Assembly: GCF_046105845.1 (NCBI RefSeq)
Contig: NZ_CP151004.1
Source of the DNA: Escherichia coli
GTDB taxonomy: Bacteria; Pseudomonadota; Gammaproteobacteria; Enterobacterales; Enterobacteriaceae
Strand: one strand, 5' to 3'
DNA: 64,000 nucleotides
In this document: positions 42,636 through 46,694 of the stretch, piece after piece
How positions within the stretch are numbered: position 1 is the stretch's first letter
Layout: the number at the start of each line of letters is the position of its first letter
Notes under the pieces: model-generated
What the model was told of the DNA's origin: nothing
The model's database searches: none
Seen by the model: the letters and a program-made list of their open reading frames with translations, nothing else
Translations under genes and position numbers: made by a program

Positions 42636-43799
42636 TTATCCAGCAATGTAATGCGGAACGAAACGTGAGGTGTCTTTGGTGATCAGCGTGTTATCTTCAC
42701 GGATCCCCATTCCGCACGCTTCATCATCGACAATCCAGCTACCGATGAGTGTGTAGCTATCGCCAAATCGCGGCAGAGGTTGAAACGCCTGGTAGATCAT
42801 CGGTTCATCGGCGTAATCACCATCAGCGTGGTCAACGACGTTATTCTGACCGTCGAAAATGGTGACATTGCCGCCTTCGCGCGAGTAGATCGGTTTACGC
42901 ACATAGCTTTCGCCAGCGGCAATCTGCGGTTTTTCGCCCTCAAACCAGGATGCAAGAAGGTTAGGATGACCAGGGAAGAAGCGCCAAAGCAGTGGCATTA
43001 GCCCTTTATTACTCAAGATACTTTTCCATAACGGCTCCACCCATTGCTCGCGACGCTTGCGCAGCAGCGGACCGTTATCGTCACGCATCATCCACTCTAG
43101 CGGATACAGCTTAAATGCACGCTGGATGACATTATCATCAAGATCGGTCAGTACACCGCCGACGCCCAAACCGAGATCTTCAATGTAGATAAACCGCGAC
43201 TCCTGCCCTGCCTGCTGGGCGCAGTCCTGCAAATACAGCACGGTAGTCCTGTCTTCATCGGTGTCCTGACAGCAGCAAAAATAAAACGGTTCCCGACTGT
43301 AAAGCTCGCTAAAGCGTGAAATCAGGCGTTCCTGAATAGCATTGTACTGATCGGCATCACGCGGAATAATGCCGCTGCGCCGGGCATCCTCCAGCCACAG
43401 CCACTGGAAATAAGCCGACTCGTACAATGAAGTTGGCGTATCGGCGTTGTACTCCAGTAGCTTCACCGGCGCATTGCCACACCAGGCAAAATCCATCCGG
43501 CCATACAGCGAAGGATCTCGTGCGCGCCAGCTTTCGGCGATCACATCCCAGTACAATGGCGGGATCGCCAGTTGCGTCAGGATCTCTTCGTCTTTAACCG
43601 CGCGATCCACCACCTCAAGGCACATCTGATGCAGTTCCGCAGTCGGTTTTTCGATCTGCTCTTCAATCTGACGCAGGGTAAAGCGGTAAGCCCGACTCTC
43701 ATCCCAATAGATTTCATTGTCGATGATATGAAAGTCGAAACCGTTGTCAGCGGCGATCTGGTCCAGATCCCACCGTACAGGAACGTTGTGTCTCAGCAT
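42636..43799 (-). CDS. yjfC: Glutathionylspermidine-synthase-like ATP-grasp protein of unknown substrate
   Basis: Start set at MLRHNVPVR (387 aa). Recognised as YjfC, the paralogue of YgiC. Confidence 0.9.
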   Translation of the reverse strand: MLRHNVPVRWDLDQIAADNGFDFHIIDNEIYWDESRAYRFTLRQIEEQIEKPTAELHQMCLEVVDRAVKDEEILTQLAIPPLYWDVIAESWRARDPSLYGRMDFAWCGNAPVKLLEYNADTPTSLYESAYFQWLWLEDARRSGIIPRDADQYNAIQERLISRFSELYSREPFYFCCCQDTDEDRTTVLYLQDCAQQAGQESRFIYIEDLGLGVGGVLTDLDDNVIQRAFKLYPLEWMMRDDNGPLLRKRREQWVEPLWKSILSNKGLMPLLWRFFPGHPNLLASWFEGEKPQIAAGESYVRKPIYSREGGNVTIFDGQNNVVDHADGDYADEPMIYQAFQPLPRFGDSYTLIGSWIVDDEACGMGIREDNTLITKDTSRFVPHYIAG

Positions 43800-43801
43800 G
43801 A

Positions 43802-44440
43802 TTAGCCTCCCCAATGCCCACGGGCGCTGGAAGAACGACCATAGCCGCCGCGAGAAACGGTTGACGCTTTTTTGGTGGTAAAGCCGCCCGAAGAGTAAGA
43901 CTCTTTTTTGCCAGAACCGGAGCGCCAGGAGTAATCACCAGAAGTGTTGCGCCAGACAGGGCGCGAAGCAAAAGAGGAACCGCCGCTGTTATAAACAAAC
44001 TGCTCATCACGATCTTTACGTATAACCCGGCTTAACAAAAATCCAGAAACGACCGGGATCCAACTCTGTTCAACGTTGTCGTAGTAACAATTTTCATACT
44101 TAGACTGACAATTCTGCTGAGTCATATTCTTCGGAACATCGGCATAAAACGCCGCTTTGGCGTTGTTCCAGCCATGAGCACAGATATCTGAATTATTTCC
44201 GTCATCAATACAATCCTGCACAGTCGAGTAAAACGTTCCGTCGCCGTCGTTATCGACATCGCCACTATCGCCACAACCTTTCAATACGAAAAAAGCGGCA
44301 CCGCCCATTAGCGCCAACGTTAAGTATTTTTGTGCGTAACGATTGCGACGCGGTTCAAAAGGATTATTCGGTCTACCAATGCGACTGATCGCTCCGTGAC
44401 CAATTTTACTGTTATTTCTTGATTTGCGTTTTCTGGCCAT
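43802..44440 (-). CDS. yjfM: DUF1190-family protein YjfM
   Basis: 212-aa ORF. Basic N-terminus, one hydrophobic segment (YLTLALMGGAAFFVL), a Cys-containing middle region and a Gly/Ser/Arg-rich tail. Recognised as YjfM. Confidence 0.88.
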   Translation of the reverse strand: MARKRKSRNNSKIGHGAISRIGRPNNPFEPRRNRYAQKYLTLALMGGAAFFVLKGCGDSGDVDNDGDGTFYSTVQDCIDDGNNSDICAHGWNNAKAAFYADVPKNMTQQNCQSKYENCYYDNVEQSWIPVVSGFLLSRVIRKDRDEQFVYNSGGSSFASRPVWRNTSGDYSWRSGSGKKESYSSGGFTTKKASTVSRGGYGRSSSARGHWGG

Positions 44441-44449
44441 GATCGTCCA

Positions 44450-44848
44450 TTACCATGTCATACAAGCTGCGTTAAAAATACCGCCAGCCAGTGCGGCGGT
44501 TCCCATAAACATTCCTGCTGCGGTATTGTGATTAATAATTTTTTCGCTTAATGCGGGCATATAAAGTCTGACGCCAGCAAAAACGAGTAACTGAATCACC
44601 AGTGCGATCCCGCCCCAGGCGAAATAGTCTGGAATACTCACCGCATTGATTGCCGCACTGGATAACGGGATCACGTAACCCAACAATGTACCGCTGAACG
44701 CCAGTGACGCCGCGGTATTATTGTTTTTGATTAACTGCCATTCGTTGTGCGGTGTAATTTTAGAATAGATAAACAGAAAAATAATCACCATAGCCACGCC
44801 AATAAAAAAATAGGCACTAAAGGCAAGAAGAGAATCCAGTATATGCAT
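44450..44848 (-). CDS. yjfL: DUF350-family small inner-membrane protein
   Basis: Start set at MHILDSLLAFSAYFF (132 aa). Four hydrophobic segments. Confidence 0.88.
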   Translation of the reverse strand: MHILDSLLAFSAYFFIGVAMVIIFLFIYSKITPHNEWQLIKNNNTAASLAFSGTLLGYVIPLSSAAINAVSIPDYFAWGGIALVIQLLVFAGVRLYMPALSEKIINHNTAAGMFMGTAALAGGIFNAACMTW

Positions 44849-44865
44849 TGTAAACGTCCTTGTAA

Positions 44866-45525
44866 TTAACCAATAATATGAAGTGATGTCAGCGGGATAT
44901 CGACACCCAACGCGCGCGAAAATAACCACTCTGGCTCGCCGAGATCGTTAAAAGATTCCTCACCATTTAGCAGCAAATATTCGTAAGTATCTTCGGTTAC
45001 TTGCCGTTGGTAGCCCATGGTAAAATTATGGACCTCCCATTTGGCATGGTTTTGATTTTCTACTTTTTCCAGCATGTAGACGGGTTCGATATTTCCCGGT
45101 TCTTCGCTGTTAAAAAATCGCTGCCAGCGTTTTTCCTGCCAGTTTAAGGTCATTGCCCCCATCGCTTTGGCATTGATCGTCTCGCGCCAGTGACTCTCTT
45201 TACTGATACCGTAGCTCTCTTCATAGACAAAGAGCTTGATATCATCAATGTCATCAATATTTTCGCCGCCGGTGGTATTGATTTGCAGAAATTCATCGCC
45301 CGAAGTGTAGTAGCGGAAAATCTGGCTACCGCCGCCCAGATCGATGCGGCTGACGGCGGCTACCGTAAATTCCTCACCCGGCAGCGCAATCAGCAATTCA
45401 TCTTCCAGCAAACGAAACGCTAACGTGTCGAGCGTAAAACCACTATTGAGATGCAGACCCAGCGGACCGCGAGCGATAGCAGGCTTATTATCCTTGCCAA
45501 ACAGACGCTGGAAAAAACCAGACAT
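44866..45525 (-). CDS. yjfK: DUF2491-family protein YjfK
   Basis: 219-aa ORF recognised as YjfK. Confidence 0.88.
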   Translation of the reverse strand: MSGFFQRLFGKDNKPAIARGPLGLHLNSGFTLDTLAFRLLEDELLIALPGEEFTVAAVSRIDLGGGSQIFRYYTSGDEFLQINTTGGENIDDIDDIKLFVYEESYGISKESHWRETINAKAMGAMTLNWQEKRWQRFFNSEEPGNIEPVYMLEKVENQNHAKWEVHNFTMGYQRQVTEDTYEYLLLNGEESFNDLGEPEWLFSRALGVDIPLTSLHIIG

Positions 45526-45545
45526 ATTTTATCCTTAAAATAGTT

Positions 45546-45568
45546 GCCAGCCTTGCAGTGAGGCTGGC
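45546..45568 (-). other. Intercistronic hairpin between yjfJ and yjfK
   Basis: GCCAGCCT (45546-45553) pairs with AGGCTGGC (45561-45568). No clear downstream T-run on the coding (minus) strand. Confidence 0.5.
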
Positions 45569-45575
45569 AAAAAAA

Positions 45576-46274
45576 TTACTCGCCCTGTTGGCGTTGCAGT
45601 CTTGCTAATACATCCTGGGCGCTACTTTTATTGCTACCGCCTATTCCGGCTTCCGCCAGCTTTTCATCAAGATCGCGACCGTCTGCGACTTTTTCCAACT
45701 GTGCAGCAGCATCCAGACGAGCCTGACGTTCGGCCTGACGCGTTTGCAGGCGTTTTAAGGATTCTGCCGCTGTCGAAACGCTGGAAGATGCGCCAACGGT
45801 AGAGGTCGTTACAGCCTGTTGTGCACGCTGCATGGCTTCAGTGGCTTTAACGACTTCCATTTGCTGCTCAAACTGAGCGATACGCTGCGCTGTCGCTGTA
45901 ACTGCTTTTTCCACGCCATCACGGGAGACTTCCAGATTCGACAACACTTGCTCTTCAGCGGTAATGAGATTCTCAAGGCGCGCGATTTCTTCAGCAACTT
46001 CGTTAATCAACGACGGATTAACGTTCTTGCTTAACGCTTCCAGCGCACGAGCTTCCAGACTGGCTTTGCGCTCACGTAAATCTTTCAGCTTATCGTGACT
46101 TAATTTCACCCGCGCCAGCAGATCAACGCGAGATTTTCCGGCTTTATCGAGTTCAGCTTTAGCGTCACGAATATGCTGTTCCAGCATGCGCACGCCCTGG
46201 GTTTCTTCAATGGATTCTTCCGCTTGGGAGATAAACGATTTCCCCAGCGTAAATAAACTTTTTAAAATTCCCAT
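45576..46274 (-). CDS. yjfJ: PspA/IM30 (Vipp1/ESCRT-III-like) family protein
   Basis: 232-aa coiled-coil-type ORF recognised as YjfJ. Confidence 0.9.
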   Translation of the reverse strand: MGILKSLFTLGKSFISQAEESIEETQGVRMLEQHIRDAKAELDKAGKSRVDLLARVKLSHDKLKDLRERKASLEARALEALSKNVNPSLINEVAEEIARLENLITAEEQVLSNLEVSRDGVEKAVTATAQRIAQFEQQMEVVKATEAMQRAQQAVTTSTVGASSSVSTAAESLKRLQTRQAERQARLDAAAQLEKVADGRDLDEKLAEAGIGGSNKSSAQDVLARLQRQQGE

Positions 46275-46292
46275 AAATACCCGTCCTTGTAA

Positions 46293-46694
46293 TTAGTGTG
46301 AATATTCTTCTGTAATTTCAGCCAGATCCAATGCGTTATCTACCAGCGAGGTTATCTCAAGCAGGATATCTTCAAGAGAAGATTTAAGCGATAACGCCCC
46401 GAAAACAATGTAATACTCTTCCTGTTGTACGCTGGAGATCCCTACCGATGACAACGGCATCATCTTCTGATTTCTTAATAAGAAGGTATTAAATTCATCT
46501 GGATTGCTGATACTACTCACCGGACAAATAAAGGTTTCGATAATCATTTGGCGGGAAGTAAAAAGAATATTGATTTGCAAATCGCCATAATCATTCATTT
46601 TAATAATTAATGCGTTCTCGCTATTTGTTACATCAATATTTTGTTCAGGTACAGTTTGCAGCGCCGTCGCCAGCGCCAACGGATTCCATGTCAT
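46293..46694 (-). CDS. yjfI: DUF2170-family protein YjfI
   Basis: 133-aa ORF recognised as YjfI, first gene of the yjfIJKLMC string. Confidence 0.88.
   Translation of the reverse strand: MTWNPLALATALQTVPEQNIDVTNSENALIIKMNDYGDLQINILFTSRQMIIETFICPVSSISNPDEFNTFLLRNQKMMPLSSVGISSVQQEEYYIVFGALSLKSSLEDILLEITSLVDNALDLAEITEEYSH

Follow-up and report, generated by a model that had tools for sequence, protein, structure and literature searches.

What does YjfC, the ATP-grasp ligase encoded next to the DUF1190 protein YjfM in Escherichia coli, attach spermidine to? The question is raised here for the yjfM-yjfC gene pair on a 64,000-nucleotide stretch of E. coli DNA (contig NZ_CP151004.1), the whole of which is referred to below as the window. 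The structures of YjfC and of its paralogue YgiC have been solved, and both showed peptide-spermidine ligase activity in vitro (Pederick et al. 2023, as cited in PMC11762307), where short peptides served as substrates according to the same review. Glutathionylspermidine synthetase activity, on the other hand, was reported to be absent from both enzymes (Sui et al. 2012, as cited in PMC11762307 and PMC12506659). RefSeq names both products "peptide--spermidine ligase". The review (PMC11762307, 2025) still calls the physiological substrate of YgiC/YjfC unknown and asks for work on YgiB/YgiC.

A reading of the window made from its sequence alone had suggested that the Gly/Ser/Arg-rich tail of YjfM is a conceivable substrate of the ligase. 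This is the only part of that reading with potential for discovery; it is sharpened here by the terminal Gly-Gly and the adjacency of the two genes, and qualified by the export of the tail. Much of the surrounding knowledge has already been published, namely the paralogy with ygiB-ygiC (2010), the operon context, the structures of YjfC and YgiC and their activity in vitro (2023), and the gene pair itself is a known module. A comparative-genomics study of the phage shock protein (PSP) systems did not propose DUF1190 as the ligase substrate. Four findings are new in this analysis. The pairing of the DUF1190 gene with the ligase gene is near-obligate, the two genes appear to have been duplicated together, the extreme C terminus of the DUF1190 proteins is under strong selection, and in Enterobacterales, though not elsewhere, the last two Gly codons of the DUF1190 gene contain the Shine-Dalgarno sequence of the ligase gene.

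The C terminus of DUF1190 proteins and the gene behind them

When 1.84 billion representatives were searched with a DUF1190 profile, 625 matched at E <=1e-3. C termini were counted in the 122 full-length proteins among the best 150 of these 625, each protein standing for one 50%-identity cluster. The end is -GG in 102/122, -G[GS] in 116/122 and [WFYMLVI]GG in 82/122. When the last 30 residues were shuffled in 2,000 trials, the average number of -GG ends was 6.1 and the highest 15, against the 102 observed. The distance between the near-invariant tail motif T-x-S-R-G-G-F-G and the C terminus varies from 1 to 46 residues. Of the 44 tails that continue for more than 14 residues past RGGFG, 40 keep the -GG end, and in 35 of the 44 [WF]G[GS] recurs, with one more copy at the very end. 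Since extended tails re-create the terminal GG motif, selection acts on the terminus itself, and it is [W/F/M]-G-G-COOH, not just the internal motif, that is strongly selected. The C terminus of YjfM in the window, TVSRGGYG...HWGG, matches the combination of T-x-S-R-G-G-F-G and a terminal [W/F/M]-G-G defined in this analysis.

The pairing was examined from both sides. In 45 species-level genome loci anchored on DUF1190, from Enterobacterales, Steroidobacteraceae, Dyella and Luteimonas, a GspS-like gene lies directly downstream on the same strand in all cases (45/45). A second set of 80 metagenome loci was fetched by ligase-only patterns and is thereby free of DUF1190 bias; 76 of these had enough upstream sequence, and 73/76 carry a DUF1190 open reading frame (ORF) directly upstream of the ligase. 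The sequence-only reading had taken DUF1190 and the ATP-grasp protein for a conserved functional dyad, and these counts bear that out also beyond E. coli. A GSP_synth profile search for distant clades gave relatives that, among the matches listed, are all at least 48% identical.

Three of the 76 evaluable ligase-anchored loci are exceptions. One of them, L104, has no upstream candidate ORF. The others are L111 (3576-3995) and L125 (759-1154 and 1191-1445, two in tandem), both high-GC metagenome loci in which ORFs of 84-139 amino acids lie between a DUF350 gene and the ligase. These short ORFs keep a basic N terminus with a KRS..L.LMG hydrophobic segment, two Cys, a Ser/Gly-rich stretch, an RGGFG-like motif and the terminal -GG, and are without the folded domain. 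Their resemblance to precursor peptides is suggestive.

At the junction of yjfM and yjfC the stop codon and the start codon are 2 nt apart when the minus strand is read, as had been noted from the letters. The start of yjfC is here the ATG annotated in the K-12 RefSeq genome; the ORF listing reaches further, to a TTG at 43814. A Shine-Dalgarno-like GGAGG for yjfC (43806-43810) is part of the last two Gly codons of yjfM, and the same bases are thus under a dual constraint as protein and as RNA. The 2-nt spacing and the overlapping Shine-Dalgarno support translational coupling, which is probable, but do not prove it. In a survey of 87 distinct DUF1190-ligase junctions, 72 combine a -GG end with a gap of <=12 nt.

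YjfC, YjfM and the proposed reaction

YjfC matches the Pfam family GSP_synth (PF03738) over its full length (498 bits, E 2e-149, residues 14-385). It is near-identical to "YjfC" in the Protein Data Bank (PDB) entries 7UK6/7UK7 (E 7e-273) and also matches "YgiC" in 7UK8 (E 3e-129); the entries for the two proteins run from 7UK6 to 7UKA. By its near-identity to the K-12 protein, YjfC of the window would be the reported ATP-dependent ligase that joins spermidine to the C-terminal carboxylate of a peptide. It is not a full GspSA: compared with the ~619 residues of the bifunctional amidase (CHAP) and synthetase, its 387 residues align with ~252-444 and 501-626 only, and it scores 163 bits against an NCBIfam GspSA equivalog cutoff of 882. 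Among structures of GspSA and trypanothione synthetase, the PDB matches 2IO7 and 2VOB have E values of 1e-32 and 8e-38, respectively. YjfC has a net charge of -26 and a pI of 4.6; the ligases as a group have a pI of 4.6-4.7, as against pI 11 for the tail.

YjfM belongs to DUF1190 (PF06693: 65.9 bits with a cutoff of 22, E 7e-18, residues 69-211). The basic N terminus, the hydrophobic segment ending in ..VLKGC, the several Cys and the disordered-looking Gly/Ser/Arg tail, all of which had been picked out by the sequence-only reading, are present. There is one strong hydrophobic segment, residues 39-53, which ends ..FFVLKGC. A Cys occupies the lipobox column in 118/122 family members, preceded by L-[ATS]-[GAS], and the wider family fits the lipobox consensus [LVI][ASTVI][GAS]C. 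In YjfM the lipobox reads L-K-G-C, with a Lys at -2 that lies outside the consensus, and the hydrophobic core is preceded by a basic stretch of 38 residues; two YjfM-type relatives are without the Cys at this position. The signal of the YjfM subfamily may act as an uncleaved anchor, which would leave the location of the tail unchanged.

The N-terminal extension belongs to the enterobacterial YjfM subfamily alone; in the wider family most proteins begin at MKRS.. In this subfamily 30-45 residues with a charge of +8 to +13 precede the usual MKRS.. signal, conserved in composition and not in sequence. The extension would remain in the cytoplasm if the signal is uncleaved.

Four of the five Cys of YjfM (C56, C77, C87, C111 and C118) are invariant or nearly so in a family alignment of 124 DUF1190 sequences: C77, C87 and C111 in 124/124 and C118 in 123/124. 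The core motif W/F-x-P-x-M-x-G-F is also present in YjfM, with P129 in 124/124 and G133 in 121/124. In the tail, R197 is found in 122/124, G199 in 120/124 and G201 in 123/124. An AlphaFold2 model of YjfM, built on an alignment of 131 sequences, has a mean predicted local distance difference test (pLDDT) score of 72. Block means are 94-96 for residues 71-130, 88 for 131-140 and 85-93 for 151-170. The model has beta strands at residues 126-129 and 131-138, within a compact alpha/beta domain, with an average pLDDT of 96 over 121-130. The charge is +11 in the N terminus, -9 in the Cys-rich region and +8 in the tail of YjfM. Counted from the lipobox Cys to the second hydrophobic segment, the charge has a family median of -6, which marks the domain as acidic.

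In the reaction proposed here, YjfM would be made with an export signal, a small disulfide-type domain and a disordered basic tail with a free -W-G-G carboxylate. YjfC would convert the carboxylate of the terminal Gly of the YjfM precursor to an acyl-phosphate, and the activated carboxylate would then be amidated with spermidine, just as GspS amidates glutathione at its glycine. The reaction would take place on the cytoplasmic precursor, before or during Sec export, and its product would be an envelope protein bearing a tethered polyamine. YgiC would act likewise on YgiB, whose tail ends -S-M-G-G. The pairing, the paralogy, the selection on the terminal GG, the export signal, the folded domain and the chemistry in vitro come from the present data or the literature, while the role of the tail as substrate and the timing before export are both inferred.

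That the DUF1190 protein is the substrate of the adjacent ligase and is modified before export is, judged from sequences and by analogy, quite possible, though somewhat short of an even chance. The fuller version, in which DUF1190 proteins are ribosomally made carriers whose C-terminal Gly the neighbouring ATP-grasp ligase amidates with spermidine in the cytoplasm, ahead of Sec export, yielding a polyamine tethered to an envelope lipoprotein, is put forward tentatively and is on balance doubtful. Modification of YjfM by YjfC is favoured by the near-obligate order of substrate gene and then enzyme gene, by their minimal spacing, by the selected -GG and by a ligase chemistry with a missing substrate. 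It is further favoured by the co-segregation of ligase clade and tail type, by the precursor-like reduced variants and by the charge complementarity of ligase and tail.

Weighing the explanations

Several points weigh against the DUF1190 protein as substrate. The mature domain and its tail are predicted to be periplasmic, on the grounds of a lipoprotein-type signal, of Cys that are invariant and of a second hydrophobic segment that is folded within the domain. The 3-4 fold increase of YgiB when the periplasmic tail-specific protease Tsp is mutated (PMC13435647) fits this location. YjfC is predicted to be cytoplasmic from its lack of a signal peptide, its need for ATP and its strongly acidic character. 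The mature end of YjfM and the ligase would thus lie in different compartments and not share one, as expected of an enzyme-substrate pair; with an exported tail and a cytoplasmic ligase, only the precursor could meet the enzyme, transiently, before or during export. To our knowledge, no Sec-exported lipoprotein is known to be modified at its C terminus before export. The short ORFs of L111 and L125 have no Pfam match and match the family profile weakly (2-9 bits). Of three DUF1190 members without a terminal GG that were looked up, two, ending -RH and -SS, adjoin a GSP_synth gene, and the third stands on a contig that stops too soon for its downstream ORF to be named; this means that the terminal GG is not strictly needed for the pairing; the idea that DUF1190 proteins without a terminal GG are also without a ligase fails on these two cases. 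The support for a modification of YjfM by YjfC is indirect, coming from the adjacency, the selection on the terminal GG and the precursor-like reduced variants. The main rival explanation is that the two proteins are partners in a pathway, on opposite sides of the membrane, instead of enzyme and substrate. On this view YjfM would sit in the periplasm as a lipoprotein and sense or bind something in the envelope, for instance a metal, a polycation or a peptide-polyamine product, the target of YjfC would be some small peptide or other protein of the cytoplasm, and the tail with its GG would serve a periplasmic interaction. The export signal, the invariant Cys and the folded acidic domain place YjfM outside the cytoplasm, YgiB is handled as an envelope protein in proteomics (PMC13435647) and Cpx (Citrobacter, bioRxiv) studies, the ligase uses short peptides in vitro and the -SS or -RH proteins retain their ligase neighbour. 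Furthermore, the PSP study reads DUF1190 as a "metal-chelating lipoprotein", a cell-surface link of extracellular stress sensing to PspA membrane dynamics and polyamine metabolism. However, a partnership of this kind gives no reason why selection should hold the extreme C terminus at [W/F/M]GG and re-create this end when the tail is extended. It also leaves unexplained why the reduced variants keep just the signal, RGGFG and the terminal GG, and why the ligase nearly always has the DUF1190 gene right in front of it, at a distance of <=12 nt. Nor do the operon ORFs and their Pfam matches in the window reveal another peptide substrate for the ligase. We consider such a partnership a serious alternative, with a probability of about a third, though somewhat less likely than the enzyme-substrate reading. 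The suggestion that the YjfM tail is the ligase substrate is strengthened, though not proved, by the GG selection, the adjacency and the reported ligase chemistry, and the tail is one that is exported.

Two further explanations concern the conserved end and the location of the tail, and both are judged very improbable. The terminal Gly-Gly could be kept solely because GGA GGN is the ribosome-binding site of the coupled ligase gene, with no role in the protein. In the window the GGAGG of yjfC falls exactly on the last two Gly codons of yjfM, and in Enterobacterales loci of the yjf type the penultimate Gly codon is nearly always GGA, with GGAGG in 26 junctions (26/72 of those with a short gap). 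The RNA-level constraint on the end of yjfM is accordingly real in E. coli and Enterobacterales and takes away part of the local conservation from the protein-level argument, but it cannot account for the pattern across the family. Outside Enterobacterales the Gly codons are mainly GGC GGC or GGT GGC, without GGAGG, and only 29/87 junctions have a Shine-Dalgarno-like tetramer of any kind at a distance of <=20 nt from the ligase start. The two terminal Gly codons vary synonymously (GGC/GGA/GGT/GGG = 35/26/14/4 and 55/10/13/1), and nine distinct junctions from eight distinct loci, with gaps of 15-408 nt, retain a -GG or -GS end. Synonymous variation and GG ends at long-gap loci point to selection at the amino-acid level, not the RNA level, family-wide; the residue before GG is likewise restricted, to W, F or M. 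As a sole explanation the by-product of a Shine-Dalgarno is therefore largely refuted, while it holds locally in Enterobacterales. The other explanation would remove the compartment problem by letting YjfM span the membrane twice, with the N terminus in, the Cys-rich loop out and the tail in, so that the tail is permanently cytoplasmic and accessible to the ligase. The charges follow a positive-inside pattern (N terminus +7 to +13, loop -7 to -10, tail +5 to +9), the loop being negative and the tail positive in 63/63 scored family members; a conserved hydrophobic motif, W-x-P-x-M-x-G-F-L-L, lies between loop and tail; and one metagenome contig (L103) carries an in-frame DUF1190-ligase fusion. 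The motif is, however, just 12-15 residues long and of marginal hydropathy (Kyte-Doolittle 15-residue 0.5-1.5), the reduced variants have no second hydrophobic segment, and the fusion contig is one base away from a normal junction. The two-span topology was rejected, given that residues 126-138 form strands of a confidently modelled globular domain and that the segment is absent from the reduced variants.

The fusions deserve a separate description. In the 3.8-kb contig L103 (41-1837), DUF1190 and the ligase form one in-frame ORF of 598 amino acids (..SWGG-S-MLRV..), with TCA at the position of the stop codon; a true fusion and an error in a single base are both possible. The E. coli database proteins labelled "DUF1190+GSP_synth", of 548-601 amino acids (one cluster has 130 members), show a frameshift just after ..FTTKK and enter yjfC in the +1 frame via ..GRLIMLRHN.. 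This is the same frame that gives the upstream TTG start of yjfC. In the window, a T run on the plus strand at ~43868-43876 (A on the coding strand) lies in the yjfM tail and encodes the ..FTTKK region, and we infer that the frameshift falls in this homopolymer run. The E. coli fusion proteins could be assembly errors or pseudogenes. As evidence on topology, natural DUF1190-ligase fusions were set aside as unreliable.

The locus, its paralogue and related systems

Of 5,426 complete E. coli genomes, 5,425 have a match to the 1.8-kb yjfM-yjfC stretch; for most of them the identity is 95-99%, and the annotation carries the same two gene names. The two genes are the last of six on the same strand, yjfI-yjfJ-yjfK-yjfL-yjfM-yjfC (block 42636-46694, minus), and yjfL is immediately 5' of the DUF1190 gene in most loci of the yjf type. 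The features are listed in the table.

Table. Genes and protein segments of the yjfIJKLMC operon, with their positions in the window
Feature	Position	Strand	Basis or remark
yjfM CDS, DUF1190 protein, 212 aa + stop	43802..44440	minus	Pfam PF06693 match; same gene in K-12 RefSeq
Basic N-terminal extension, YjfM residues 1-38, net charge +11	44327..44440	minus	Charge count
Predicted export signal or membrane anchor with lipobox-like end, YjfM residues 39-56 (YLTLALMGGAAFFVLKGC)	44273..44326	minus	Kyte-Doolittle 15-residue hydropathy 1.97
Predicted folded acidic alpha/beta domain, YjfM residues 68-181, including second hydrophobic segment 126-138	43898..44239	minus	
Predicted disordered basic Gly/Ser/Arg tail, YjfM residues 182-212	43805..43897	minus	T-V-S-R-G-G-[FY]-G + terminal W-G-G; AlphaFold2 pLDDT 49-62
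Junction TGG GGA GGC TAA TC ATG (TAATCATG)	43797..43813	minus	2-nt spacer from yjfM stop to yjfC ATG
yjfC CDS, GspS-like ATP-grasp, 387 aa + stop	42636..43799	minus	Pfam PF03738; RefSeq "peptide--spermidine ligase"
yjfL, DUF350	44450-44851	minus	Pfam + K-12 annotation; same operon, upstream
yjfK, DUF2491	44866-45525	minus	Pfam + K-12 annotation; same operon, upstream
yjfJ, PspA/IM30	45576-46274	minus	Pfam + K-12 annotation; same operon, upstream
yjfI, DUF2170	46293-46694	minus	Pfam + K-12 annotation; same operon, upstream

This operon type has already been listed in the PSP comparative-genomics paper, with PspA, a CesT/Tir-like protein, an ATP-grasp ligase, DUF350, a "DUF1190 lipoprotein" and DUF2491. 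Among the PspA-linked polyamine operons of that study, the operon of the window corresponds to the "third group", which has a CesT/Tir-like and PspA dyad together with the other four components. It differs from the operon of Citrobacter (L008 3849-4916) and some other Enterobacterales, where a gene for a K+ channel of 355 amino acids with the selectivity filter TLGFGD lies between yjfJ and yjfK. The corresponding interval of the window, 45526-45575, contains no channel gene but a terminator-like hairpin, with a stem of 10 pairs at 45544-45570 (minus). Behind the DUF1190-ligase pair of one distant locus (L128 3285-6614) lie genes for a small K+ channel fragment (Ion_trans_2), a GapR-like DNA-binding protein and a Band_7 protein, which fit the membrane-stress context reported for DUF1190-ligase operons.

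The sequence-only reading had called yjfM-yjfC a paralogous copy of ygiB-ygiC, and the alignments confirm it: YjfM and YgiB are 23% identical (BLASTP, E 3e-12), YjfC and YgiC 51% (E 2e-142), and both pairs fall into the same Pfam families (YgiB against DUF1190, 187 bits, E 3e-55; YgiC against GSP_synth, E 4e-164). It had also placed ygiBC upstream of tolC, which is wrong. The order in K-12 is tolC-ygiB-ygiC on one strand (L001 2616-6082), the pair lying downstream, with gaps of 147 nt between tolC and ygiB and 5 nt between ygiB and ygiC. The two pairs have their families, their gene order and the reported peptide-spermidine ligase activity in common. YgiB and YjfM further share a signal with a Cys at the lipobox position, four Cys, the TxxRGGFG motif and the terminal GG. 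They differ in that YgiB has a classical LAGC lipobox and an -RSMGG end, whereas YjfM has the 38-residue basic extension, LKGC and an -HWGG end. The contexts also differ, since ygiBC follow tolC and yjfMC close the yjfIJKLMC operon of the PspA type.

A neighbour-joining tree was made of 42 non-redundant ligases, labelled by genomic context and by the last six residues of the partner. The ligases in tolC context form a single clade, and all their partners end -RS[ML]GG; the partners of ligases in yjfL context mostly end -[WF]GG. The tolC-context pair is in this respect one derived clade, unlike the yjf type. Since ligase clade and tail type of the partner co-segregate, the data fit a two-gene unit that was duplicated and inherited together. 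It has been reported that yjfMC are homologues of ygiBC and that losing both pairs worsens the growth defect of a tolC mutant (Dhamdhere & Zgurskaya 2010, as cited in PMC11762307 and in the bioRxiv Citrobacter Cpx study). This effect, together with the position of yjfMC in a PspA-type envelope-stress operon, gives the context in which the proposal is to be seen.

The upstream neighbour of almost every such ligase encodes a protein with a selected -[W/F/M]-G-G end, and this makes it a testable candidate for the substrate. The open question of the YgiC/YjfC substrate is thereby reduced to one experiment, the mass of the C-terminal peptide of YjfM or YgiB with and without the ligase. If the proposal is true, it would describe a new bacterial protein modification by which polyamine metabolism is covalently linked to the cell envelope. 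It would be the first C-terminal polyamination of a bacterial protein, would give YgiC/YjfC a physiological role and would provide an ATP-grasp counterpart of SUMO/ubiquitin-spermidine conjugation. If the DUF1190 protein is not the substrate, its conserved C terminus still calls for a periplasmic explanation.

Among known systems, GspSA and trypanothione synthetase belong to the same ATP-grasp synthetase family as YjfC (PF03738), and in GspS the carboxylate of the C-terminal glycine of glutathione is amidated with spermidine. YjfC differs in having no amidase (CHAP) domain, so that it matches ~250-626 of enzymes with 619-652 residues, and in that the acyl donor proposed here is a ribosomally made protein tail and not glutathione. 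RimK, whose target is ribosomal protein S6, and tubulin tyrosine ligase are ATP-grasp enzymes too; each is directed at one particular folded protein and works on the C-terminal carboxylate of its exposed tail. Unlike the reaction proposed for YjfC, they add amino acids and not a polyamine, their substrates are cytoplasmic, and they belong to other ATP-grasp subfamilies.

Modification before export also has precedents. The adhesins AIDA-I (by Aah) and HMW1 (by HMW1C) are modified by a cytoplasmic enzyme of the adjacent gene before Sec export, and microcin E492 is modified by MceIJ at the carboxylate of its Gly/Ser-rich C-terminal tail before export. These modifications are glycosylation or siderophore esterification, none of the proteins is a lipoprotein, and microcin E492 leaves by a dedicated exporter and not by Sec. 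For the proposed product the comparison is with SUMO and ubiquitin. Eukaryotic E1/E2 enzymes, using ATP, link the C-terminal diglycine carboxylate of these proteins to N1 of spermidine and possibly to N8 as well (PMC12270671). That conjugation proceeds by E1/E2 adenylation and a thioester, not by an ATP-grasp acyl-phosphate, and on a beta-grasp carrier unrelated to DUF1190; what it would have in common with the reaction proposed for YjfM is a protein C-terminal diglycine carboxylate joined to spermidine.

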